The notes: generated by a model not told the origin, from the letters alone. Counted from the stretch's first letter, positions 5,242 through 52,293 are shown. The stretch is DNA of 64,000 nucleotides from a virus (IMGVR_UViG_3300046000_004279:1-64000), one strand, 5' to 3'. A program made the numbers and translations.

Positions 5242-5270
5242 TTGACACAATTGAGTTTTTCGTTTACTAT
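5242..5270 (+). promoter_or_regulatory. sigma70 promoter of tmRNA
   Basis: TTGACA-17 nt-TACTAT. Confidence 0.8.
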
Positions 5271-5276
5271 ATAAAT

Positions 5277-5585
5277 TGTAAACGTTGAAGCAACGTGGAC
5301 ACATTCTGGACTCGGGGGCGGTACCCGACGACTCCACCACAGATACACAGGCCGCAACAGGTTTTGATGGGCTCTTATGAGCAAAGTAGCGTGAAAGTCG
5401 TTACACTGTGTATCTTTGCTGGGGTCGAAATAGGATCGACAGGTGTGAAGATGACGTGGAGTTTACCGGATGGCCTCGTATCGGCCGCTAAACTAAATGC
5501 AAACGATAATTTTGCTCCTCAGGCTTACGCACTAGCTGCATAAGCACTTGGGTATGGTTCCACCTAGAAACAGAACGGGCCGCTA
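5277..5585 (+). ncRNA. ssrA: Circularly permuted two-piece tmRNA (alphaproteobacterial type); tag ANDNFAPQAYALAA
   Basis: Acceptor piece ends ...CGACTCCACCA (5339); coding piece starts GGGGTCGAAATAGGATCGAC (5421); G3-U70 pair; tag frame 5499-5543; outer ends approximate. Confidence 0.93.
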
Positions 5586-5614
5586 AACATGTTTAACAAA
5601 ATAGGACTACTCTA

Positions 5615-6010
5615 ATGAAAACTTTTCTTATGACCGCTGCTGCTGTTCTCGCTCTTTCTGCTGGATCAGCTTCCGCTCTTGATTTTGGCACTACTGGTGT
5701 TGCTTTGAACACTGAAGTGACCAGCGAGTACAACATCGACACCGCGCTGTTCACTGTTGTATCGACTCCAGAGCTTGCTTACTCTCCAATCGAAAGTCTT
5801 GGTCTGTATGTCAACACTGATCTAACCCTCTATGATGGTACTGATGTAATGGTGTTTGACGAGAGTGCTTTCACAGGATTGACTGTTGGTGCTACTTACG
5901 TTCCAAACCTCAGCCTAGGCAAGACTTCTGTCGAGCTTTACATCGAGTCAACTTTCGATGCAGATCTTCTACGTACAGATGCAGTTCTTGGTGCTACTCT
6001 TAGCTTCTGA
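5615..6010 (+). CDS. Small outer-membrane beta-barrel-like protein
   Basis: Ala-rich signal peptide (ASA), alternating beta-strand pattern, C-terminal Phe (GATLSF). Confidence 0.6.
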   Translation: MKTFLMTAAAVLALSAGSASALDFGTTGVALNTEVTSEYNIDTALFTVVSTPELAYSPIESLGLYVNTDLTLYDGTDVMVFDESAFTGLTVGATYVPNLSLGKTSVELYIESTFDADLLRTDAVLGATLSF

Positions 6011-7345: not shown

Positions 7346-8116
7346 ATGATATTTACAAATGAATATAAGATAAAGCTAATCTTGATTTTTAACCACATAG
7401 CTGTGGTTGTTGGACTATTTGTCGCCGACTACCATTGGTTAATATTATCACTTGTTGGATGGATCTTAATAAATCGAGTTGGTGGTGAAATTGGATTGCA
7501 CAGATATTTTTCACATGGAAGTTTTAAAACCTCTAAGTGGAAAGAAAAATTGCTGTTTATACTTGCAACATTTAACTGCGTAGGATCTCCTATGATGTGG
7601 GTCGGTATTCATCGTAAGCACCATGCAAATAGCGATAATGAAAAAGATCCCCATGGCAGTCAATCTATATTGAGAATATGGTCAACATTTTGGAAACCAT
7701 TTACTATTGAACCAAAGTATCTTGTTGATATGATGAGAAGCCCAACCCATAGATTTTTTCACAAACATTATTTTAAAATTCTCATTTTAAGTTATATTGC
7801 ACTGGGTCTAATTGCGTGGCAAATACCTGTATTTTTAATTAGCGCAAGTAGCTTAATAACTATACACAGTGCAGGATTAGTTAACTCTTTGTGTCACAAA
7901 TATGGGTATAGAAATTTCAAAACAAAAGATTTAAGCACAAACAATACATTTATAAACATACTAACTCTTGGTAGTGGTTTACATAACAACCATCACGCAG
8001 ATCCTATGAATTACTCTAACAAAGTAAAAAAATATGAGTTTGATTTTCCAGCATGGATTATCAAAAACTTTTTGATGCAAGGTACAAATAATGATAGTTC
8101 ACAGATCAACTCTTAA
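7346..8116 (+). CDS. Membrane fatty acid desaturase (delta-9 type)
   Basis: His boxes HRYFSH, HRKHH and HNNHH; DPH motif; TM helices. Confidence 0.92.
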   Translation: MIFTNEYKIKLILIFNHIAVVVGLFVADYHWLILSLVGWILINRVGGEIGLHRYFSHGSFKTSKWKEKLLFILATFNCVGSPMMWVGIHRKHHANSDNEKDPHGSQSILRIWSTFWKPFTIEPKYLVDMMRSPTHRFFHKHYFKILILSYIALGLIAWQIPVFLISASSLITIHSAGLVNSLCHKYGYRNFKTKDLSTNNTFINILTLGSGLHNNHHADPMNYSNKVKKYEFDFPAWIIKNFLMQGTNNDSSQINS

Positions 8117-8969
8117 TCCGCGTGTACGAACTCTTAAAGACTGTATATCGCCATTAGATCTAATGCCTCGTAGTGAACAAGGGGCCAAGATCATACATCA
8201 GTATGAACAAGACAATCCAATAATTCTAAACATTAGACATCGTCCTCATATCAGACTAAACATAGAAAAGTTTGATCTTGAAGCAGCACGAAAAGAAGTT
8301 GATCAGTTCTATCAAAGCAATGACTTCATGCAGTTGAACATGAAAGGCATTTCGTTAGATAGTGGTGGGCGCCCATACGACTATGATGGTTATCACTCGT
8401 GGTGGTCAAGTAGAGCTCTTGTAAACTATATTCCACAATCTAAAGGGGTATGGGGTAAAGACGATAGAGAACTTGCAATAAAAGAGTATCCACAATACCA
8501 ACAACGAGCATCTAAAATAGAAGGTCATCGGCCGTTTCTCCAAGATATGGATTTCTATAAAACTGAAGTATGGGATGCATTACCATACATTACTGATTAT
8601 ATTATGACAAATATATGCAGCGATTTTAAATATATGCGCCGAACACATTTGTATAAAATGAATCCAAGAGGTTGTTTAACTTTTCATAATCATAGATTAC
8701 TTCCATGGGAAACAGAAGAAGCTCCTCACGATGAGGGGATCATTCACATCCCTTTGTACACCCATGAAAATTGCAAGATGTTGACTCAGATTGGCGATAG
8801 TGATTGGATTGACGCCCAGCACTATGCGGAAGGGGAAGGCTGGCTGCTCAATACATACATGAATCACGCTGTAGATGCAACATCCTGCCCAATTGATAGA
8901 CTTCATTTAACCATTATGGTTGATTTTGCAGATCCAAAGTTTGCAAAGCTATTGGAGAATAGTTTGTGA
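8091..8969 (+). CDS. Asp/Asn beta-hydroxylase-like cupin oxygenase
   Basis: FHNH...IHIPLYTH...WLLNTYMNHAV...RLHL. Confidence 0.7.
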   Translation: MIVHRSTLNPRVRTLKDCISPLDLMPRSEQGAKIIHQYEQDNPIILNIRHRPHIRLNIEKFDLEAARKEVDQFYQSNDFMQLNMKGISLDSGGRPYDYDGYHSWWSSRALVNYIPQSKGVWGKDDRELAIKEYPQYQQRASKIEGHRPFLQDMDFYKTEVWDALPYITDYIMTNICSDFKYMRRTHLYKMNPRGCLTFHNHRLLPWETEEAPHDEGIIHIPLYTHENCKMLTQIGDSDWIDAQHYAEGEGWLLNTYMNHAVDATSCPIDRLHLTIMVDFADPKFAKLLENSL

Positions 8970-9670
8970 GTAACTTTGATGTGGTTAATAGCAATCGGGG
9001 AACCTTTATTGTTAATAAGCACGATACCCACCAATATCAACCTTTGAAAACAAACGGCACTACTCATATAGAAAATGAGATTGATCACATTTTAGACATT
9101 GTTGCTACACTACCAAAGCAAGAGGTATTTGTCGATGCTGGTGCCAATATTGGCTTAATTACTATATCTGTTGCTAAACATTTTAAAGGTAAGGTGCTTA
9201 GTTTTGAACCTCAACCAGTTATATACAATTGTTTATGTGGCAATATAGTACTCAACGATTTGTTAAATGTTATTCCGTATAATATTGGTTTAGGAGACAA
9301 TTCTTGTAATATGATTGTTCCTAATATAGATTATACAATTGCTCGAGACTTTGGTGATGTTAGATTGCGCCCACTGATGTATAGCGGAACTGAAGTTGAT
9401 GTTCATCCTTTGTCACAGATTACTGACACCATCGACTTTTTAAAAATTGATGTTGAGGGAATGGAACAAAGTGTTTTAGCTGGTGCCGAGTCGCTAATCA
9501 CAAAGAACAGACCATGGTGTTGGATTGAACATTTCCGATCAGATTTAAACGTGTTAGTGCAATTCTTCAAATCAAAGCGGTATCGTGTTTATAAAATTAA
9601 AGGCGACTTGGCTAACATTGTAGCTTGTCCAAACGATCAAACATTTCAGTGGATGGGTAATGAACTATAA
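8966..9670 (+). CDS. FkbM family SAM-dependent methyltransferase
   Basis: VDAGANIG, SFEPQP, FLKIDVEGME. Confidence 0.9.
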   Translation: MSNFDVVNSNRGTFIVNKHDTHQYQPLKTNGTTHIENEIDHILDIVATLPKQEVFVDAGANIGLITISVAKHFKGKVLSFEPQPVIYNCLCGNIVLNDLLNVIPYNIGLGDNSCNMIVPNIDYTIARDFGDVRLRPLMYSGTEVDVHPLSQITDTIDFLKIDVEGMEQSVLAGAESLITKNRPWCWIEHFRSDLNVLVQFFKSKRYRVYKIKGDLANIVACPNDQTFQWMGNEL

Positions 9671-9962
9671 TAAGTTTTATGCAGTCAGATGGTTTGATAG
9701 TGAGTGTTTTACCAGTGTCAACACAGTAGATTATGTGATGCAGTTGAAACTAGCTGATAAACCAATGTTCTATAAGTATTTGGTATACGAGTTAATTGAG
9801 ACGCCTCATTCTTTTAAACAGCTAACTCTCATGTTACCTTTTGATAGGCATTTTAATAGAGTATCATCTCTAAAACTACATGCTGCTGAGAAAGCTAAAA
9901 TGAAATATCATTTTAACAAACTTAGAGAAGCCACCCACGGTCAGCAACAAATTCAAACTTAG
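9660..9962 (+). CDS. Hypothetical protein
   Basis: Overlaps the FkbM stop; 100 aa. Confidence 0.55.
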   Translation: MNYNKFYAVRWFDSECFTSVNTVDYVMQLKLADKPMFYKYLVYELIETPHSFKQLTLMLPFDRHFNRVSSLKLHAAEKAKMKYHFNKLREATHGQQQIQT

Positions 9963-10775: not shown

Positions 10776-11509
10776 TGTGTTTTCTTTCTAATTTTTGATA
10801 CAATCCAACCTGTGATGTCAAACTCTTTGGAGTTGTGCGCAAAGTTGATATTTTTAGGATCTTTGTGGTGGTTGTTATGATAACCTTCGCCTGCTATTAA
10901 TACTGAAAGTACTTGGGAGTTTCTACTTTCATCCTCTGTATCGTATGTTCTATAACCCACCCAAGGTAAATGTGAGAAAACATTTATTGCGGCCGTGGCA
11001 TGCCATAGAATTGCAGCGGGTAGTAGATGTAACCATACAACCAATTGAGGATCTATAACTGCAAGGATAACATCATACGATATGTTAATCTTAAAATAGT
11101 TTTTATGGAAAAACATTACAAGTTTATCTCTAAGCAAGTCTTTGGCGAATCTTAACTTTGGCTGATACGTCACAATACCAAAATATGTTTTGATTATACC
11201 TTTGAACGATGGACTATGTGGATCTTGTTCAGTATCACTATGAGCGTGGTGTTCTCTATGCATTGCCCCCCACACAAGTGCACTAGCGTTCAAACCTAGC
11301 GTTGCAATCAACAGTGATACGGTCTTAAACCACTGCGGAGATTGGTATCCTCTGTGACTAATCAGACGGTGGTAGCCAGCACTAATTCCAATAGAAATCA
11401 TCAAAAAGTAAACAACAATTGCGGCAATGAAACCGTATAGACTAAAATAGGTAATTGCGTATAGTATTGATAAATGCGCAGCAATCTGATAGGTTAGCAG
11501 CTTATACAT
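10772..11509 (-). CDS. Membrane fatty acid desaturase (second copy)
   Basis: GYHRLISH, HREHH, DPHSP, GEGYHNNHH. Confidence 0.93.
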   Translation of the reverse strand: MYKLLTYQIAAHLSILYAITYFSLYGFIAAIVVYFLMISIGISAGYHRLISHRGYQSPQWFKTVSLLIATLGLNASALVWGAMHREHHAHSDTEQDPHSPSFKGIIKTYFGIVTYQPKLRFAKDLLRDKLVMFFHKNYFKINISYDVILAVIDPQLVVWLHLLPAAILWHATAAINVFSHLPWVGYRTYDTEDESRNSQVLSVLIAGEGYHNNHHKDPKNINFAHNSKEFDITGWIVSKIRKKTQ

Positions 11510-12264
11510 TATAACACCACATCATCATTGAAAACACCATCAACTCGTATAGTATAACTGAAATGTGGTAACGCATCAACTCCATGGTAGTCTGTTGTTT
11601 GATAAGCATATAATTTATGATCTTTGGGTAAATAGTGTTTTGTGTCTGTTACAGAATCGTAAATGTAAACGGGCCGATATCCACCAGGATTAAAATTTAT
11701 ATGATGGTTAAATACTCCATCTGGTATCCAATCTCTATGACAAGGCACATCTGCTTGGGGCCAAGATCCGTATATTACAACTCTACCAACAGATTTGAAA
11801 GGGAGTTTTTCAATGCACTGCTTAGTGTACGGTGTAAGATCAGAAAACTCACTCCACGGGTAATTGTCGTGAGCCCTATTGACAAACAGATTTGGCTTTA
11901 AATCAATAATAAAAAACCATGGTAATAAACTTTTGTGTTTAAAAAATAAAAACTTGCGTTTTTCCATCTGCGGAAGATCTTTTACATCATTTCTATCACC
12001 ATTGAAGTTATACATTACTTCATTTTCAAATTGACCATATTGTAACTTTGGAGGCATAACACCAGTAACAATTGGATATTTATTTAACTCTGTTTTGGCC
12101 AACGCCAAGCAAATTTCTGTATCCATCCTGTCATAATCAAAGTCAGCATATTTGGAAAAATCAAGAAACAATTTACCATTAACTCCTTGCGGCGGCAAAT
12201 CATCGTGTTCAAATTTAAACACAGTTCCAAAATCAGGATCGTCTTTTTTATCAAGTATTTTCAT
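11509..12264 (-). CDS. 2OG-Fe(II) oxygenase-like protein
   Basis: GRVVI...PCHRD...DYHGV...RVDG. Confidence 0.7.
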   Translation of the reverse strand: MKILDKKDDPDFGTVFKFEHDDLPPQGVNGKLFLDFSKYADFDYDRMDTEICLALAKTELNKYPIVTGVMPPKLQYGQFENEVMYNFNGDRNDVKDLPQMEKRKFLFFKHKSLLPWFFIIDLKPNLFVNRAHDNYPWSEFSDLTPYTKQCIEKLPFKSVGRVVIYGSWPQADVPCHRDWIPDGVFNHHINFNPGGYRPVYIYDSVTDTKHYLPKDHKLYAYQTTDYHGVDALPHFSYTIRVDGVFNDDVVL

Positions 12265-12706
12265 TTATTCCTCCAACAATATGGATTCGATCTTCAAGAG
12301 ACGCGTTAACGAATGTGTGAATCTTAGTGGTATCTGCTAAATAATGATTGCCATCTGCAGGATATCTATATAACTTATCCTCAATAATCATAAAGCAGTT
12401 TTCATTTGTAATCAACGGTATATGCACACGAACTGTCGGATCAATGTGGTAAGAATAACACTGGTATGGTTGAAGTCGCATAAGTCTAGTGCGAAACATA
12501 CCAAGCTGCTTGATCACACTGTTGGTGTACGTCATTTCTGGAAACAGTGGTTCAGTAAAGTCTGCTTCACCATGATTTAGCTTTTCAAGTCGACCTGTGC
12601 CATACGAAGGATCAATGTTTCCTGGAACACCCTGAAGACTAATTTGGTTGTCATATTCAGGAATAAACTTTTCGATCTCTAACAGAATTTTATCAATATC
12701 AATCAT
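12251..12706 (-). CDS. Asp/Asn beta-hydroxylase-like 2OG-Fe(II) oxygenase
   Basis: RTRLM..YSYHID..RVHIPLITN..DTTKIHTFVN..RIHIV. Confidence 0.82.
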   Translation of the reverse strand: MIDIDKILLEIEKFIPEYDNQISLQGVPGNIDPSYGTGRLEKLNHGEADFTEPLFPEMTYTNSVIKQLGMFRTRLMRLQPYQCYSYHIDPTVRVHIPLITNENCFMIIEDKLYRYPADGNHYLADTTKIHTFVNASLEDRIHIVGGINENT

Positions 12707-43390: not shown

Positions 43391-43427
43391 TTAAAAATGT
43401 ATAAATATATCAAAAATGAGATATCAA

Positions 43428-44483
43428 ATGTTACGTTTTAAAAAAGTCTTTATGGAAAGTGGTTTAAATTCAAAAGCGGGTAACCCTGAGAATTTTGATT
43501 TACACAGTAAAAAATACGACACTGAAGGTGATCGACATACTCAAAAGTATATTGCGCCTTACTTGCCTGGCAAAATTTCTCATGCGCAAGGCACACACAG
43601 AGTAAATGGGGATGTTTCTTCAGATATTCCAAAAGGTTCTAATGTAACAATTCATGGCCATTCAATTGTTAACAACAGGCATCATGTAACTATTTCTGCA
43701 GTTGGAAGTAATAAAAAAGTTACAGTAGCTACAAGCAAACTGAACAAACCCACAGGTTCTACTACCATTGAAAATGAAGGTCATAAGTATGAGAAGTCGA
43801 CATTTGATAGATTTAAAAGTCATGGATTAATTCCTGATGGATATAGTCCAGCTGGATCCACTGCTGGTACGGATGTTCCTATCATAAACAAAAGACAAAA
43901 AACTCACCACCAAGGTCGAATTGTTGCCGATGACAAAGCATTGTTATCAGGCGAAGTTAAAAAAGATACTACAGCAGCATTTGGACAGATAACTGTTAGA
44001 CATGATCCTCAAAAGGGCGGATGGCATATTCCCGATAATAACAGAGGAAAAAGACCCAGCTATGCATCCGAAGTTGAAAAAGCTGGTTTAATAGACCACT
44101 TAAACAAAACCGCCAGTGATCCTACTAAAACGACAAAAACTGCTTCTGGTCGAGTTAAAACTGAAAGAATTACACATCCAGATCTTAAACCCGCAGAATC
44201 ATATTTGACTGATCACCATGTTGACGTGTTACACGTGGGCGGCGGTCATGGTACGTATAGTGTCGGTGAGAAAGATGTTACTGACCACGGTCTACCTAGG
44301 CTATCTGGTAAAGGATTATGGACAATTCGTCAAAAACAAACAGGTGCGAATGCACATAATACTAGAACTATCATGTTCCAGCCACATGGCAAAGCTGGAC
44401 TAAATAATAGTCATATTAATCTTGATGATGATTCGCATATAGAATCTTTCAAGAAAACCTTGGGTCACTCTACTTCGTCATAA
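43428..44483 (+). CDS. Late protein, putative PD-(D/E)XK nuclease fold
   Basis: TATAAATA at 43400; KYE...GTDVPII...GEVKK; KPTG motif shared with the 16068 protein; start 43416 or 43428. Confidence 0.55.
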   Translation: MLRFKKVFMESGLNSKAGNPENFDLHSKKYDTEGDRHTQKYIAPYLPGKISHAQGTHRVNGDVSSDIPKGSNVTIHGHSIVNNRHHVTISAVGSNKKVTVATSKLNKPTGSTTIENEGHKYEKSTFDRFKSHGLIPDGYSPAGSTAGTDVPIINKRQKTHHQGRIVADDKALLSGEVKKDTTAAFGQITVRHDPQKGGWHIPDNNRGKRPSYASEVEKAGLIDHLNKTASDPTKTTKTASGRVKTERITHPDLKPAESYLTDHHVDVLHVGGGHGTYSVGEKDVTDHGLPRLSGKGLWTIRQKQTGANAHNTRTIMFQPHGKAGLNNSHINLDDDSHIESFKKTLGHSTSS

Positions 44484-44610
44484 CAATCTATAAAACAGGA
44501 TATTCAAATGGAACCTTTAATAGAAAAGACTTAAGATTGTTCTTGCATCCGCATTTTCATTAAAAACTTCGTTGGATGTTAAAAAGTTTTCATGGAGCGT
44601 AAAAAAACGC

Positions 44611-44640
44611 TTGACTTACAATAACAAAGTACTATATAAT
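44611..44640 (+). promoter_or_regulatory. sigma70 promoter for leader and tRNA operon
   Basis: TTGACT-18 nt-TATAAT. Confidence 0.7.
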
Positions 44641-44670
44641 AGAAGTACGAACAAAGGAACTCTATTGCAA

Positions 44671-44757
44671 ATGACTTCGCTGCATAAACAAAATCAATCC
44701 TGGTTTATGACCCCGCTCTGCGGCGAGTATATTCGCATGTGTGGAGGCTCTATGTAA
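44671..44757 (+). CDS. Putative attenuator leader peptide MTSLHKQNQSWFMTPLCGEYIRMCGGSM
   Basis: AAGGA RBS (in-frame TTG at 44665 is an alternative start); last codons overlap the antiterminator arm. Confidence 0.6.
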   Translation: MTSLHKQNQSWFMTPLCGEYIRMCGGSM

Positions 44758-44784
44758 CGTATATCAAAGATATACCTTATCAAA

Positions 44785-44819
44785 GAGCCCTCCCAGATGA
44801 AAATCTTGGAGGGTTTTTT
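44785..44819 (+). terminator. Intrinsic terminator (attenuator) directly before tRNA-Cys
   Basis: CCCTCC-c-AGAT-GAAA-ATCT-t-GGAGGG followed by T6. Confidence 0.8.
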
Positions 44820-44824
44820 AATAC

Positions 44825-44902
44825 GGTGTGGTGCTCGAGTGGCCCAAGGGAACGGATTGCAAATCCGTAAAGTCGTGAGTTCGAATCTCACCCACACCTC
44901 CA
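44825..44902 (+). tRNA. tRNA-Cys(GCA)
   Basis: ACGGA-TTGCAAA-TCCGT; U73; CCA. Confidence 0.92.
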
Positions 44903-44904
44903 AT

Positions 44905-44978
44905 GTTGGTGTAGCTCAATGGTAGAGCTGCGGTGGTCAGCACCGTGCGTGAGAGTTCGATTCTCTCCACCTTCGCCA
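44905..44978 (+). tRNA. tRNA-Trp paralog with abnormal loop GG-TCA-GC
   Basis: Nearly identical to 45057-45130 except for the anticodon loop and one flanking base. Confidence 0.6.
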
Positions 44979-44982
44979 ATTC

Positions 44983-45054
44983 GGTGTGGCAGCTTGGTGC
45001 TGACTTGGGTCTCATAAGCCCGAAGAGAAAGTTCGATTCTTTCCCACACCACCA
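44983..45054 (+). tRNA. tRNA-Met(CAT) with reduced D arm
   Basis: GGTGTGG/CCACACC acceptor; CTCATAA loop; CCA. Confidence 0.75.
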
Positions 45055-45056
45055 AT

Positions 45057-45130
45057 GTTGGTGTAGCTCAATGGTAGAGCGGCGGTCTCCAAAACCGTGC
45101 GTGAGAGTTCGATTCTCTCCACCTTCGCCA
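45057..45130 (+). tRNA. tRNA-Trp(CCA)
   Basis: GCGGT-CTCCAAA-ACCGT; G73; U.U mismatches at acceptor pairs 2-3. Confidence 0.85.
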
Positions 45131-45218
45131 AAATAACTGTTGACATTTGTGTAGAAAAGGTCTATATTAAGTTAACAGGGGGAAATTAATTCGAATCAAT
45201 CTCTCTTGCTCTTTCAAA
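45130..45218 (+). promoter_or_regulatory. sigma70 promoter plus boxA-like element (leader 1)
   Basis: TTGACA(45140)-17-TATATT; TGCTCTTTCAAA at 45207. Confidence 0.7.
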
Positions 45219-45266
45219 CTAACTAGAAAATGTCCTAGCGTAAGCGATGATGGACTGGAAACAGAT

Positions 45267-45384
45267 AACTCTGTTTTCATTGGGGTGGTGCTTGGTGCTC
45301 GCTTAGTCTCTTGCAGGAGACGGTGGCTAGCTGCAACTAGTGAGCAAGGTTCGATTCCTTGGCCACCTCATTGAAAACAGAGTT
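45267..45384 (+). ncRNA. tRNA-like structured RNA inside a long closing stem
   Basis: AACTCTGTTTTCA/TGAAAACAGAGTT stem; inner GGGGTGGT/GCCACCTC helix and T-arm CAAGG-TTCGATT-CCTTG. Confidence 0.65.
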
Positions 45385-45890: not shown

Positions 45891-45926
45891 AAGTCAAACC
45901 TAGTTGATCTCGAAAGTCGCTAGGTC

Positions 45927-45995
45927 TGCTCCTACAAGTGGTTATGCGGTTGTTCGAGCAACTGCATGTGGGATCGTTCCCCACTAGGAGTAACA
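45927..45995 (+). ncRNA. D-armless tRNA mimic
   Basis: TGCTCCTA/TAGGAGTA acceptor-like stem; 10-bp helix with TCGA loop; T-arm GTGGG-ATCGTTC-CCCAC; ends ACA. Confidence 0.6.
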
Positions 45996-46000
45996 AGTTT

Positions 46001-46085: not shown

Positions 46086-46092
46086 ACACCAT

Positions 46093-46167
46093 GCAGCATT
46101 TGATTTCTGGTGAGATCGCTATCCTTTCAAGATAGAGAGACGGGATCGTAACCCGTATGCTGTACCA
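46093..46167 (+). tRNA. tRNA-Glu(TTC)
   Basis: CTATC-CTTTCAA-GATAG; T-loop ATCGTAA; CCA. Confidence 0.85.
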
Positions 46168-46170
46168 ATT

Positions 46171-46451: not shown

Positions 46452-46889
46452 ATGAAGAAGTTGTTATTGGTAGCGTTACTGCTACTGCCATCCATTGCTT
46501 TCGCTGAGAAGAAACCAGAAGGCGTAGTACACGATCTAAAGATCATTCGCGTGATTGATGGTGACACTGTAGAGTTTGAAGCACCATTCCTTATTGATCC
46601 ATTGCCTAAGAAGCTATCAATTCGTGTATGGGGTGTTGACACTCCTGAAAAGTCTTTCCGCGCTAAGTGCGAGAAAGAAGCAGCAATGGGTGCAGAAGCT
46701 TCCAAGTTCACAAAGGATCTTCTTGCCAATGCCAAGACCACACAGATCTCAATCTACGAATGGGATAAGTATGGTGGAAGAGTTCTTGGAGATGTTATCA
46801 TTGACGGTAACAGCTTAACGAAGATGTTGCTAGACAAAGGTTATGCTCGTGAATACTATGGTGATGCAAAACAATCTTGGTGTGAGTGA
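46452..46889 (+). CDS. Thermonuclease (SNase-like), exported
   Basis: RVIDGDT, IRVWGVDTPE, DKYGGRVLG; signal peptide; late promoter at 46419. Confidence 0.9.
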   Translation: MKKLLLVALLLLPSIAFAEKKPEGVVHDLKIIRVIDGDTVEFEAPFLIDPLPKKLSIRVWGVDTPEKSFRAKCEKEAAMGAEASKFTKDLLANAKTTQISIYEWDKYGGRVLGDVIIDGNSLTKMLLDKGYAREYYGDAKQSWCE

Positions 46890-47204: not shown

Positions 47205-47210
47205 TTAGTG

Positions 47211-47283
47211 AAAATAACTGTTGACATTTGGTTCAGAATAATGTATAAGTATACATGTAAGACGAATCAATGCTCTTTGAAAA
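47211..47283 (+). promoter_or_regulatory. sigma70 promoter plus boxA-like element (leader 2)
   Basis: AAAATAACTGTTGACATTTG identical to leader 1; TATAAG -10; TGCTCTTTGAAAA at 47271. Confidence 0.7.
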
Positions 47284-47298
47284 TTTAGAAACAGAAGT

Positions 47299-47393
47299 GA
47301 TTCTGTTTTCACATGCATCCTGTGAATGAGGGTAGGCCACCCAACACTTTGCGGACTACGCAGAAATGCTGGGGTGCATGTGAAAACAGAGTT
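47299..47393 (+). ncRNA. Structured RNA inside a ~23-bp closing stem
   Basis: GATTCTGTTTTCACATGCATCCT/GGGGTGCATGTGAAAACAGAGTT enclosing two small hairpins. Confidence 0.6.
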
Positions 47394-47394
47394 T

Positions 47395-47567: not shown

Positions 47568-47878
47568 GAATTCGATGGACGGCGTAGTTACACGGTCTTA
47601 GACGCCTCTCGTAGAAGCGCAACATCTAAGACGAGGTCGGGAGAGATGCTTCCCATATAGTCATACCCGCCCGTTTGGCGGTCCACTATATGGGGTATAA
47701 AGCTGATCATAACCTTGGGAACCCGTGCGCTGAAAAGGGGATGCATACCCGTTTCCATCGAACTTTATACGGAGTCAGTAGTGTGTCGGCTCGTTTTGAG
47801 GTTACAGATCTTATACCGTTGAAGGATAAGCACACCACTACTTCTGCGAAAGGCTTAGATCCCCTTTCGTATGAATTC

Positions 47879-47951
47879 GGGGCGGGTAATGGGTTACGGG
47901 TGATCCTTGCAAGATTGCTGTCGTTGGGTTCGATTCCCAATTGCTCCACCA
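47879..47951 (+). tRNA. tRNA-Ala(TGC), reduced D loop
   Basis: G3-U70; CTTGCAA loop; CCA. Confidence 0.82.
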
Positions 47952-47955
47952 AATT

Positions 47956-48029: not shown

Positions 48030-48220
48030 AACTTGGGGCTAGCCGCCCAAGACCAGTGTCAGAGAATTTCTTGTTACAACGCTGACACTTTAATAAACTC
48101 TGGTATACAAGCGTGCCTGTCGACGATAATAGATGGGGGTTTTAGTTATATTCCACCCTTAAGAAATATGACGGGTAGTGATGCAACCTAGAAGGGGTGG
48201 CTCCCAGCATCGTAAATTAC

Positions 48221-48395: not shown

Positions 48396-49529
48396 ATGAA
48401 GTCCAATGTGATACAAGATGAAATCACTGCTGAAATCAGCAAGATTTTTGACTATAAGTTTGACGGGACAACTGAGTTTGTTCCACCGTCAATTGGAATG
48501 ATTGATAAAGAGACAACACTGAAAGACTTCAACATTGGCTTGATAGTCGGACCATCGGGATCTGGCAAGAGTACGATGTTAAAGGATTTCGGTGTTGAAG
48601 TCGATCCTCAATGGGATCCTGATCTCTGCGTTGCATCTCATTTTGAAAATGTGAAACAAGCACAAGAACGTTTAGGTGCAGTTGGGTTCAATAGTATTCC
48701 AAGTTGGCTTCGCCCTTATCATGTTTTGTCTAACGGTGAACAGTTTCGCGCTCGTTTGGCTCGTCAACTAGATAACAATGTAGTGGTGGATGAGTTCACT
48801 TCTGTCATTGATCGTGATGTTGCTAAGAGTTGTTCAAATGCAATTCATCGTTACATCCATGCAAATGGTTTGAAGAACATCGTCTTTTCATCCTGTCATT
48901 ATGACATTATTGAGTGGTTACGTCCAGATTGGGTATTTGATACTCAAACTGGTAAATTGACCACAAGGAGGTTTGAAAGGCCAGCCATCGTTTTGGAAAT
49001 CCTACCTTGTTCCACCAAAGCTTGGTCATTGTTCAGCGACCATCACTATCTTGACGGGGACATCAATAAAAGTTCACGATCTTGGATCGTCACGTGGAAC
49101 AACCGACCTGTCGGCTTTCTTTCAAGTTTAGCGATGCCTAGTGGTAGTCTTAAGAACGCTTGGAGAGGTCACAGAACTGTCGTTCTACCTGAGTTTCAAG
49201 GTTTGGGTATTGGTGCTAGAATGACCGAAGCTTTAGGTGAGATGCACATCAGAGAAGGCAAAAGGTTCTTCACAAAGACCGCACATCCGCGCTTAGGTGA
49301 GTATCGTAATGCGTCTGACCTTTGGAGATCGACAAGTAAAAACGGGATCTTGAGAAACGACTACAAACACATATCAACTGATGGTTTACCAAACCCTCGT
49401 GGCGCTGGTTACAGTCGTAAGTTTACAAAAGAATATCTGGCTAAACACGCTGACAGAGTGTGTTACAGTCACGAATACATAGGAAATACAACGGATCGTG
49501 GGCTGGATGGTAAAGCAGCAGTTTGCTAA
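48396..49529 (+). CDS. ABC-type ATPase fused to a GNAT/Mom-like acyltransferase
   Basis: GPSGSGKS, LSNGEQFR, VDEFTS; HHYL, RTVVLPEFQGLGIG. Confidence 0.85.
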   Translation: MKSNVIQDEITAEISKIFDYKFDGTTEFVPPSIGMIDKETTLKDFNIGLIVGPSGSGKSTMLKDFGVEVDPQWDPDLCVASHFENVKQAQERLGAVGFNSIPSWLRPYHVLSNGEQFRARLARQLDNNVVVDEFTSVIDRDVAKSCSNAIHRYIHANGLKNIVFSSCHYDIIEWLRPDWVFDTQTGKLTTRRFERPAIVLEILPCSTKAWSLFSDHHYLDGDINKSSRSWIVTWNNRPVGFLSSLAMPSGSLKNAWRGHRTVVLPEFQGLGIGARMTEALGEMHIREGKRFFTKTAHPRLGEYRNASDLWRSTSKNGILRNDYKHISTDGLPNPRGAGYSRKFTKEYLAKHADRVCYSHEYIGNTTDRGLDGKAAVC

Positions 49530-50287: not shown

Positions 50288-50355
50288 AGCTAAAATAACT
50301 CTTGACTCTTGCTTAGAGATGCACTATATTGATACTGTAGTAAAGAGGAAAACAC

Positions 50356-50766
50356 ATGTACACGTTCGACGAATCAATTGTTTCTGATCTGCACAAAGAC
50401 ACTTACGGCTTCCGCCCTGACAGTGCTTTCTGGTCTAACTGGAATGTCTCCTCAGATGCTGGCAAACAGTACATCTGGGATTGTCTGCTCGAAGCTTTCG
50501 CCCACACCATTGAGATTAATGCTAACGAGGATATCGCTGCGATCAATGCTTTCGAGCTTGAGATTGCAAACACGATTGATCTTGGTGCTACTTCGCGTGA
50601 AGTCGCTATTCGTTGGATCATTGAGTCGATGGGTCTGACTGAGACCGATTTGGTGTACGGTGGCAGTTATGTCTGTTTCTTGAAGAAACTACCGTATTCA
50701 ATGGCTCCGTTGTTTGATAACGCGATTCGTGATCTTGAAAGTAACTTCATCAAAGAGGATGCATAA
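50356..50766 (+). CDS. Hypothetical early protein
   Basis: SDLHKDTYGFRP motif; GAGGA RBS. Confidence 0.75.
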   Translation: MYTFDESIVSDLHKDTYGFRPDSAFWSNWNVSSDAGKQYIWDCLLEAFAHTIEINANEDIAAINAFELEIANTIDLGATSREVAIRWIIESMGLTETDLVYGGSYVCFLKKLPYSMAPLFDNAIRDLESNFIKEDA

Positions 50767-51168: not shown

Positions 51169-52293
51169 ATGAATAAAATGATTTTGAATCCAAACGATGC
51201 TTTGTATGCATATGGTAAAATAAACGAAGCGTATGGTTCTATCAATCGTATTGACGATTATTTTAGAATGAAGAAACTTGAACGGATCAAACACCTTCCT
51301 ACGCCCTTGTTTGGGTTTTCGATGGAAGATGAGATGTTTCAATCATACGATATGTCTCCTGATGATATGAATTTCAAAGTTGTTCAACTGAAAAATCAAA
51401 CCTTCAATACTTTGTTGGAGATGACGGCTTCATTCACTTATGAAGACGCCCCTGGTAAAGAACTAAAGCTTGCAATTCAAGAAACCACAACTGGTAAGTA
51501 TGTTGGGTTTATCAAGTTAGGATCTCCTCTAATCAACTCCAAACCAAGAAACGATTACTTAGGTGATGTTCCTGAGTTCTCTCGTTTCAACAAACATGCA
51601 ATTATGGGGTTTATCATTGTTCCTGTTCAACCGTTTGGGTATAACTATCTCGGCGGTAAACTACTCAGCCTTATCTGTGCAAGTCACGAGATACGTGAGA
51701 TGATAAACAAAAAATACAATTGTAATATCTGTTTGTTTGAAACTACTTCACTGTATGGCAATATCAAAGGAACATCTCAGTATGATGGTCTCAAGCCCTA
51801 CTTGCGGTATCTTGGCGATACACAGTCTAAGTTTCTGTTAACTCTTCCTGATTCTATATACCATGATCTATACAAGTGGTTCAAAGATAAAAACAATGGT
51901 GAAGAACTGATTCACAAAGGTGCGTCTAGCAGAAAACTAAAAATTCAGACTAAGATGATTTCAATCATTAAACACTCTTTGAAAGAACATCATCCAGATA
52001 AGTATACAGAGTTTGTGGAGTTTATCAAAAATCGTGAAGAAGTCACAACTCAAAAAAGGTTCTACATGTCTGACTATGGGTTCTCAAACGTAAAAGATGT
52101 TTTGACTGGAAAGACTGATACATTGGTCCCGAATCCAGAGAACTATGACAAGTTCTATCTTGATAATCTTATAAAGTGGTGGAAGAACAAAGCTACAAAC
52201 AGATTTAACCGATTGAAAGAAACGGATTGTTTGCGTACCAATCTTGAGGTTTGGAACGAGGATACGATCAACACGATTGATATTATCAGATAA
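51169..52293 (+). CDS. DUF4338/DruA-like protein
   Basis: PFGYNYLGGKLL, ETTSLYG, SQYDG motifs. Confidence 0.65.
   Translation: MNKMILNPNDALYAYGKINEAYGSINRIDDYFRMKKLERIKHLPTPLFGFSMEDEMFQSYDMSPDDMNFKVVQLKNQTFNTLLEMTASFTYEDAPGKELKLAIQETTTGKYVGFIKLGSPLINSKPRNDYLGDVPEFSRFNKHAIMGFIIVPVQPFGYNYLGGKLLSLICASHEIREMINKKYNCNICLFETTSLYGNIKGTSQYDGLKPYLRYLGDTQSKFLLTLPDSIYHDLYKWFKDKNNGEELIHKGASSRKLKIQTKMISIIKHSLKEHHPDKYTEFVEFIKNREEVTTQKRFYMSDYGFSNVKDVLTGKTDTLVPNPENYDKFYLDNLIKWWKNKATNRFNRLKETDCLRTNLEVWNEDTINTIDIIR

Follow-up and report, generated by a model that had tools for sequence, protein, structure and literature searches.

A leader element of about 210 nt, situated directly upstream of a tRNA-Cys gene in a viral contig, contains a 28-codon ORF and can be folded into two mutually exclusive structures, an intrinsic terminator and an antiterminator that begins within the last codons of the ORF. 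With a probability of roughly 0.6, judged from comparative analysis and modelled folds, we propose that this leader is a ribosome-mediated transcription attenuator of a phage tRNA-Cys-(Trp)-Met unit, which would be off if translation of the ORF keeps pace with transcription and on if it lags. Most likely the leader represents a new use and a variant of a known attenuation mechanism. If this is true, the phage would measure decoding in real time and adjust its own tRNA supply, and the logic of the trp-type attenuators would be extended to RNA genes. The reasons for which phages carry tRNA genes, and the timing of their expression, are still debated; candidate reasons include codon compensation and escape from tRNA-cleaving defences (e.g. 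PMC10264068, PMC11555353).

The window, by which we mean the whole stretch of 64,000 nt that was analysed, is the initial 64 kb of an IMG/VR viral contig of 110,888 bp (~53% complete), in which the structural genes are similar to those of T4-like myoviruses from marine and fresh water. It contains 25 tRNA genes within one 10-kb stretch, and several sigma-70 promoters close to consensus, all belonging to one repeat family, are scattered among them. Upstream of this tRNA region there is a tmRNA gene of the permuted, two-piece type (5245-5634) with the tag ANDNFAPQAYALAA.

Relatives of the leader were gathered by two routes. One homologue, L007, was reached via a conserved P-loop/GNAT protein encoded 3.5 kb downstream of the leader, and further variants were recovered by exact-pattern scans of IMG/VR and the JGI metagenomes. 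The 12 distinct variants come from different metagenomes and fall into three diverged lineages of uncultured phages, namely the window group (the window, L087, L088, L094, L101 and L108), the L007 lineage, comprised of L007 alone, and the L091 group (L091, L093, L095, L106 and L112). All 12 possess the promoter, an AAAGGA word, the ATG, 28 codons, the stop, the terminator and a gap of 5 nt to tRNA-Cys; since the search patterns were placed in the region termed region 3 below, in the 3' arm of the terminator or in the C-terminal peptide motif, the invariance of these parts is partly a matter of ascertainment. Among the 21 metagenome matches to a terminator/tRNA junction pattern, 8 were unrelated protein-coding stretches matched by chance; a looser terminator pattern yielded only ordinary terminators of another phage group, and a degenerate DNA pattern for the peptide motif retrieved only the same four contigs from IMG/VR and nothing from prokaryote genomes. 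A 355-aa protein encoded upstream was useless as a synteny anchor, as its relatives (L002-L006) have no tRNAs nearby, and it had no match among isolated phages; a distant blastn comparison of the region with isolated phages matched the tRNA genes only. Immediately 5' of the leader promoter L087, L088 and L007 carry an intact gene whose product includes the stretch KLRWMLKSF; in the window this gene is displaced by a region with an ORF at 43416-44483, and a remnant of its 3' end (44572-44610, ...KLRWMLKSF...) persists.

All elements of the leader lie on the plus strand. A preliminary description of this DNA had placed a sigma70 promoter at 44611-44640, and a sigma-70-type promoter of the form TTGACT-N18-TATAAT is present there. 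It agrees with 11 of 12 consensus positions and is the joint-best consensus match within 42-53 kb, an interval in which such matches are not enriched as a whole (26 found vs 23.8 expected). In the relatives a AAAATAACTGTTGAC word lies upstream of it, and the same word is seen at other promoters of the tRNA region. With the transcription start taken at its predicted position, the 5' UTR would span 44647..44670 and contain an invariant AAAGGA (44653-44658) together with a pyrimidine word, which reads CUCU in the window and CCUCC or CUCCCC in the relatives. This word can be paired with the antiterminator strand termed region 2 below, and might possibly serve as an anti-antiterminator, comparable to the 1:2 hairpin of trp, by which an untranslated leader would terminate: the pairing appears in several full-length minimum-energy folds, in a register that varies by lineage, and is weak in L095 and L106. 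The ORF begins ~24 nt past the predicted start of transcription, and its ATG is, like the AAAGGA, invariant in the 12 variants. The AAGGA word (44654-44658) that had been read as the ribosome-binding site is present, though at an atypical distance of 12 nt from the ATG (10 nt in L007); in those genes of the phage with a recognizable AAGGA or Shine-Dalgarno-like word the spacing is mostly 6-8 nt. Hence, initiation at the leader ATG is not assured.

The ORF (44671..44757; 28 codons followed by TAA) had been described with these same boundaries, and its length is exactly 28 codons in 12 of 12 variants. The predicted peptide is MTSLHKQNQSWFMTPLCGEYIRMCGGSM in the window, MKLSHNQTQNWFMTPLCGEYIRMCGGSM in L094, MYSQTVTFKQNMCPLFGGEYIRAFGGSM in L091, MKSHNVTFKQNMCPLFGGEYIRAFGGSM in L095 and MLCHLQSPMNAKRSVFTGEYIRMRGGSI in L007; it has a variable N-terminal half and a C-terminal motif of the form GEYIRxxGGS(M/I)-stop that is conserved across the three lineages. 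The lineages differ inside the ORF by two compensating 3-nt indels, and outside it by gaps of 1-5 nt. In eight conserved codons (18-22, encoding G18-R22, and 25-27, encoding G25-S27) all five variable sites are synonymous third positions, the N-terminal parts of L095 and L112 are separated by 3 synonymous and 0 non-synonymous changes, and in nearly all variants the remaining two frames are interrupted by stops. This pattern of substitutions and indels is that expected of a translated ORF under purifying selection and suggests that the leader is indeed translated. The predicted helices would, by wobble pairing, tolerate four of the five synonymous changes, and constraints on the RNA therefore contribute too. 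Further, the conservation of the motif indicates that the peptide itself may matter, something of which a simple attenuator has no need. Its conserved part, the C-terminal 11 residues, would occupy the exit tunnel when a ribosome stands on the stop, and 7 nt before this stop lies GGAGG, the consensus Shine-Dalgarno word; speculatively, either the C-terminal peptide or the GGAGG word could prolong the residence of the ribosome on region 2. In 11 of the 12 variants, L007 being the exception, GGAGG, 4 nt, an AUG and the stop (44743-44757 in the window) also constitute a minimal start-stop ORF, and a ribosome initiating on it would likewise cover the antiterminator strand. A hairpin within the leader ORF (44716..44746), in which CUCU/GGAG encloses GCGAG-UAUA-UUCGC (44723-44736), is a candidate for a pause hairpin or a competitor of region 2.

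The leader as a whole folds far better than its shuffles (z = -5.3). Its 3' end is formed by a predicted intrinsic terminator (44782..44819) whose 12-bp outer stem, in which the A/U tracts are included, is separated by a 1x1 mismatch from an inner stem of 4 bp; the loop is GAAA, and a U6 tract follows. The arms are AAAGAGCCCTCC and GGAGGGTTTTTT, the inner part is AGAT-GAAA-ATCT, the computed energy is -21 kcal/mol, and the T6 run is separated from tRNA-Cys at 44825 by 5 nt, in agreement with the preliminary description. This hairpin is likely to terminate transcription; a simple terminator scan did not call it, a C/T mismatch within the stem being the probable reason. In the alignment of the variants 100% of its cells are paired, and one inner pair changes in a compensatory manner from U-A to C-G.

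The competing antiterminator is comprised of a 5' strand, region 2 (44743..44757), which consists of GGAGGCUCU (codons 25-27) and UGUAA (the last codon and the stop), an apical hairpin (44759..44775), and a 3' strand, region 3 (44777..44793), which from 44782 onward is also the 5' arm of the terminator. Both elements noticed at the outset are present: GGAGGCTCT (44743-44751) pairs with AGAGCCCTCC (44784-44793) over 9 bp with one bulged C, and GTATATC-AAA-GATATAC (44759-44775) is a perfect hairpin. The duplex alone amounts to -14.5 kcal/mol, a value reached by ~2% of 130-nt stretches, whether shuffled or genomic. The antiterminator of each variant is a stem-loop of three tiers: in the basal helix GGRGGYUC is paired with GAGC-CCUCC, in the middle helix the last codon and the stop are paired with ACCYUAUCA, and at the top there is an apical hairpin that is kept in the relatives while its sequence and loop vary by lineage (GUAUAUC, GUAUAC, GUUAGA and others). 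In nine variants its energy lies between -19.2 and -22.1 kcal/mol, vs -19.6 to -22.4 kcal/mol for the terminator. The mutually exclusive geometry that had been claimed, a terminator opposed by an antiterminator of equal stability in which the last codons of the ORF take part, is thus found in 12 of 12 variants. Of the cells of the antiterminator alignment, 96% are paired; the final base of the stop codon and 44777 form an A-U pair in the 6 variants of the window group, a G-U pair in L007 and a G-C pair in the 5 variants of the L091 group, and the covariation score was matched by only 3 of 500 column shuffles. The covariation check that had been suggested for both stems accordingly turned up one varying compensatory pair in each, and as most pairs are invariant the covariation rests on one pair per helix. 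Among the observations that would speak against the proposal, related phages with the terminator but without the ORF and the antiterminator pairing had been named; 12 of 12 variants retain all of these elements, partly through ascertainment.

In transcripts cut before the 3' arm of the terminator, the minimum-energy fold contains the antiterminator in all variants, and folds that lack it are less favourable by 4.7-13.3 kcal/mol. Once the full-length leader is allowed to equilibrate, the terminator prevails, in the L091 and L007 lineages almost regardless of the position of the ribosome; hence the switch must be kinetic, as it is in the trp leader. When the ribosome was modelled as a 29-nt footprint around each A-site codon of the nascent RNA of the window, the probability of the antiterminator was ~0.88 with no ribosome and 0.82-0.88 with the A-site at codons 1-20, fell at codons 21-22, and was 0 from codon 23 to the stop (29). 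The masked folds that had been suggested as a check therefore came out as anticipated for nascent RNA, the antiterminator being lost only with a ribosome near the end of the ORF and abolished from codon 23. The related claim, that a ribosome stalled at almost any earlier codon allows read-through, agrees with the nascent folds (codons <=20) but not with the full-length equilibrium folds of the L091 and L007 lineages. Equilibrium mask scans of the full-length leaders gave no codon window that is consistent across the lineages, and we draw no codon-specific conclusion from them. The distance from the stop codon to the terminator stem is 24-30 nt in all variants. In a study of terminator placement, terminators that lie a few bp after a gene are reported to be repressed, with an efficiency that grows with distance (PMC4824070); at 24-30 nt a terminating ribosome should not block the hairpin.

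Combining these elements, the attenuator might operate as follows. The strong promoter would fire and the 28-codon ORF would be translated; during transcription of regions 3 and 4, the latter being the 3' arm of the terminator, region 2 would pair with region 3, the three-tier antiterminator would form and the polymerase would read on into the tRNA genes. A ribosome that has arrived at about codon 23 or at the stop would instead cover region 2, the terminator would form, and the transcript would end 5 nt before tRNA-Cys. The tRNA output would hence rise with slow or absent translation of the leader and fall with translation that keeps pace. We infer both the race between ribosome and polymerase that would decide read-through and the cause of any slowing of the ribosome.

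The unit behind the terminator (44825..45130) encodes tRNA-Cys(GCA), a Trp-like tRNA with the anticodon UCA, tRNA-Met(CAU) and tRNA-Trp(CCA), and is bounded by the next promoter (TTGACA-N17-TATATT, 45140..45168). In the relatives it is Cys-Trp-Met or Cys-Met, followed by the same next promoter, and across every array examined a stem with a T-run stands directly before tRNA-Cys only. As there is no space for a promoter between the terminator and tRNA-Cys, the conserved Cys-(Trp)-Met tRNAs depend on read-through. The leader had originally been regarded as the gate of the whole tRNA array. This part of the proposal has to be abandoned: a new promoter at 45140 and different leaders at other tRNA blocks indicate that it gates only the Cys-(Trp)-Met unit of 2-4 tRNAs. 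The unit is followed by no terminator of its own, so that read-through transcripts could continue further.

The array shows several other features. Repeats of the promoter family (AAAATAACTGTTGAC...) at 45127-45281, 47208-47394 and 50289-50390 are followed by leaders with a boxA-like TGCTCTTT word, in which an AU-rich hairpin, GAAACAGA...TCTGTTTTC, precedes the next tRNAs; these leaders constitute a second, ORF-less type in the tRNA array of the window. The Trp-like tRNA of the gated unit (44905-44978) is a suppressor-like duplicate of tRNA-Trp with a UCA anticodon and no U33, and suppressor-like tRNAs are also seen in L007 (CUA; 12220-12294) and L094 (UUA; 3148). The leader stop, TAG in L007 and TAA in L094, matches the suppressor tRNA of the respective phage; the TAA of the window does not match UCA. 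Proteins encoded inside the tRNA region include the 377-aa protein with P-loop and GNAT acetyltransferase domains (48396-49529), which lies between tRNA genes and has >320 relatives in IMG/VR, most of them away from tRNA arrays, as well as a DruA-like protein (Pfam PF14236, E 2e-12; 51169-52293) and a staphylococcal-nuclease-like protein (46452-46889). Long ORF-free spacers between tRNA genes (45891-46000, 46086-46170, 47571-47955 and 48030-48220), one of which ends in a T-arm-like GGGTTCGATTCCC...CCACCA, may hold further small RNAs or degenerate tRNAs.

What the leader senses is a separate question. The first 22 codons had been reported to use 17 of the 20 amino acids, with A, D and V absent, and this count is correct. 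Compared with a background of 12.7 +/- 1.5 amino acids per 22 codons in real proteins of the phage, such diversity has P ~0.004, whether estimated from these proteins or from short ORFs of the window. It is 16-17 in the L091 group and 18 in L007, with N-terminal halves that differ between the lineages; conditioned on shared residues, Fisher's method gives P ~7e-5 over the three lineages, and the two non-window lineages alone give a combined P < 0.001. This recurrence favours a broad sensor. It is possible, and we offer it tentatively, that the leader gauges decoding capacity in general: with nearly every amino acid sampled once, a shortage of almost any tRNA, its cleavage, or a general slowdown of ribosomes would open the gate, and a ribosome that finishes the ORF would be detained on the antiterminator strand by the C-terminal peptide and the GGAGG word; the leader would then belong to a class of tRNA-supply feedback devices that recurs in unrelated tRNA-rich phages such as the Caulobacter phage phiCbK. 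We can only surmise that an anticodon nuclease or starvation would be the trigger. The leader has no runs of regulatory codons, and a pure "any codon" sensor does not predict the conserved C-terminal motif. The idea that the leader mirrors the whole array was discarded, as the overlap between leader and downstream tRNAs (15 of 17 amino acids vs ~14.5 by chance) is not significant; the K and E codons of the leader have no phage tRNA on this contig. A reading specific for Cys, Met and Trp fits about as well. Here the ribosome would be slowed at Cys and Met (and Trp) codons, and the unit would sense and feed back on its own tRNAs. Every leader has at least one Cys and at least two internal Met codons; in the window lineage Cys (2), Met (3) and Trp (1) account for 6 of the 27 residues (P ~0.003), Trp is found in the leader only in the lineage with tRNA-Trp in the gated unit, and in phiCbK mini-ORFs with annotated terminators that are rich in the amino acids of the tRNAs behind them precede tRNA blocks. 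However, the proportion is 3 of 27 (P ~0.19) in the L091 and L007 lineages, the association with Trp is a single evolutionary contrast, and several Met codons are shared by descent. Further, the Cys of L007 is at codon 3, one of the two Cys of the window is at codon 24, under the terminating footprint, and this reading offers no account of the marked diversity of the remaining residues. We regard this form of autoregulation as possible, though less likely than not.

Two further explanations dispense with attenuation by a ribosome altogether. According to one of them the promoter, ORF and terminator form a small stand-alone gene whose product is the peptide or an RNA of ~170 nt, the tRNAs being expressed through a constant leak or from upstream transcripts, and the complementarity of regions 2 and 3 would be incidental. 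The synonymous changes at the conserved codons, which point to purifying selection on the peptide, and the retention of the C-terminal motif in three lineages are what such a gene would show; complementarity of the observed strength does occur in ~2% of random stretches, and the same type of terminator sequence also ends ordinary genes in other phages. This explanation nevertheless appears unlikely, given that in all variants the three-tier antiterminator is as stable as the terminator and its covarying pair involves the stop codon, that the apical hairpin changes its sequence yet remains a hairpin, and that the length of the ORF and the distance from stop to terminator are held. Moreover, a strong terminator with no promoter behind it would be an odd expression route for conserved tRNAs, and the peptide motif has no relatives outside the clade in IMG/VR or prokaryote genomes. 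The other explanation treats the ORF as untranslated and the CGCUCU word with its GCGAR-UAUA-UUCGY hairpin as a boxA/boxB-like (nut-like) site, or as a leader bound by a protein or RNA, with a modified polymerase passing the terminator. In its favour are the poor Shine-Dalgarno spacing, the conservation of CGCUCU(U/G) followed by the hairpin in two lineages, and the much better boxA-like TGCTCTTT word in other leaders of the same tRNA region. The boxA consensus is TGCTCTTTAACA in rrn operons and CGCTCTTA in lambda; the word of the leader matches only part of it, CGCUCU alone being shared, and is altered in L007 (CGGTCTTT). The word is embedded in an ORF whose pattern of change is that of coding sequence. 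As the coding-type substitutions and indels and the fixed frame of 28 codons would be unexpected in an untranslated RNA, and no Rfam family matches the leader, we regard this explanation as highly improbable. A T-box or riboswitch was likewise dismissed, no family of Rfam matching 44611-44824 at E <= 1. Attenuation coupled to translation of the leader remains the reading that we prefer.

Full-text searches of the literature recovered leader-peptide attenuators for amino-acid, synthetase and resistance genes, and none for tRNA genes. The classical examples are trpL, hisL, pheL and leuL, the multivalent thrL and ilvL, and pheM of pheST. With these the present leader shares a promoter-proximal short ORF, a terminator before the genes and a mutually exclusive antiterminator that starts at the end of the ORF, as well as the predicted polarity, in which a ribosome at the stop leads to termination and a lagging one to read-through. 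It differs from them in that its targets are tRNAs rather than biosynthetic or synthetase genes, in that it has a high diversity of amino acids instead of the run of cognate codons that is their hallmark, in that the ribosome-free default in the nascent-RNA folds is the antiterminator and not a 1:2 hairpin, and in its conserved peptide C-terminus and its occurrence in a phage. Stalling on a short leader ORF also causes terminator read-through in bmrB-bmrCD (PMC4191407), the mef/mel leader (PMC4335068) and the whiB7 uORF (PMC10274678). These can act, as the leader might, as general gauges of impaired translation; unlike it they control bacterial resistance or stress genes and sense ribosome-targeting drugs or amino-acid shortage. 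The nearest case in print, to which the leader would be similar in its output, is the trn operon of Anabaena sp. PCC 7120, a silent tRNA array that is induced by translational stress (PMC8421152, PMC10272220), since in both a supernumerary set of tRNAs would be turned on under impaired translation. The trn operon, in contrast, is regulated at its promoter, where the repressor TrcR binds direct repeats, and the words attenuator, leader and terminator are absent from the 2021 paper on it. A parallel in the arrangement of ORF and terminator is offered by phiCbK (NC_019405.1), in which each of three tRNA blocks follows a short ORF and an annotated rho-independent terminator (8040-8180, 9541-9800 and 11344-11510): Glu-Asp in block 1, Pro-Pro-Lys-Lys-Leu-Leu-Leu-Ser-Ser in block 2 and Phe-Val-Ile-Ile-Val-Gln-Gln-Gly in block 3. 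The GenBank record lists these terminators but attaches no interpretation to them. The sites have no sequence similarity to the present leader, and their peptides are biased towards the downstream tRNAs, as in gp335 (45 aa), in which 23 of 45 residues are Pro, Lys, Leu or Ser, whereas the peptide of the present leader is diverse.
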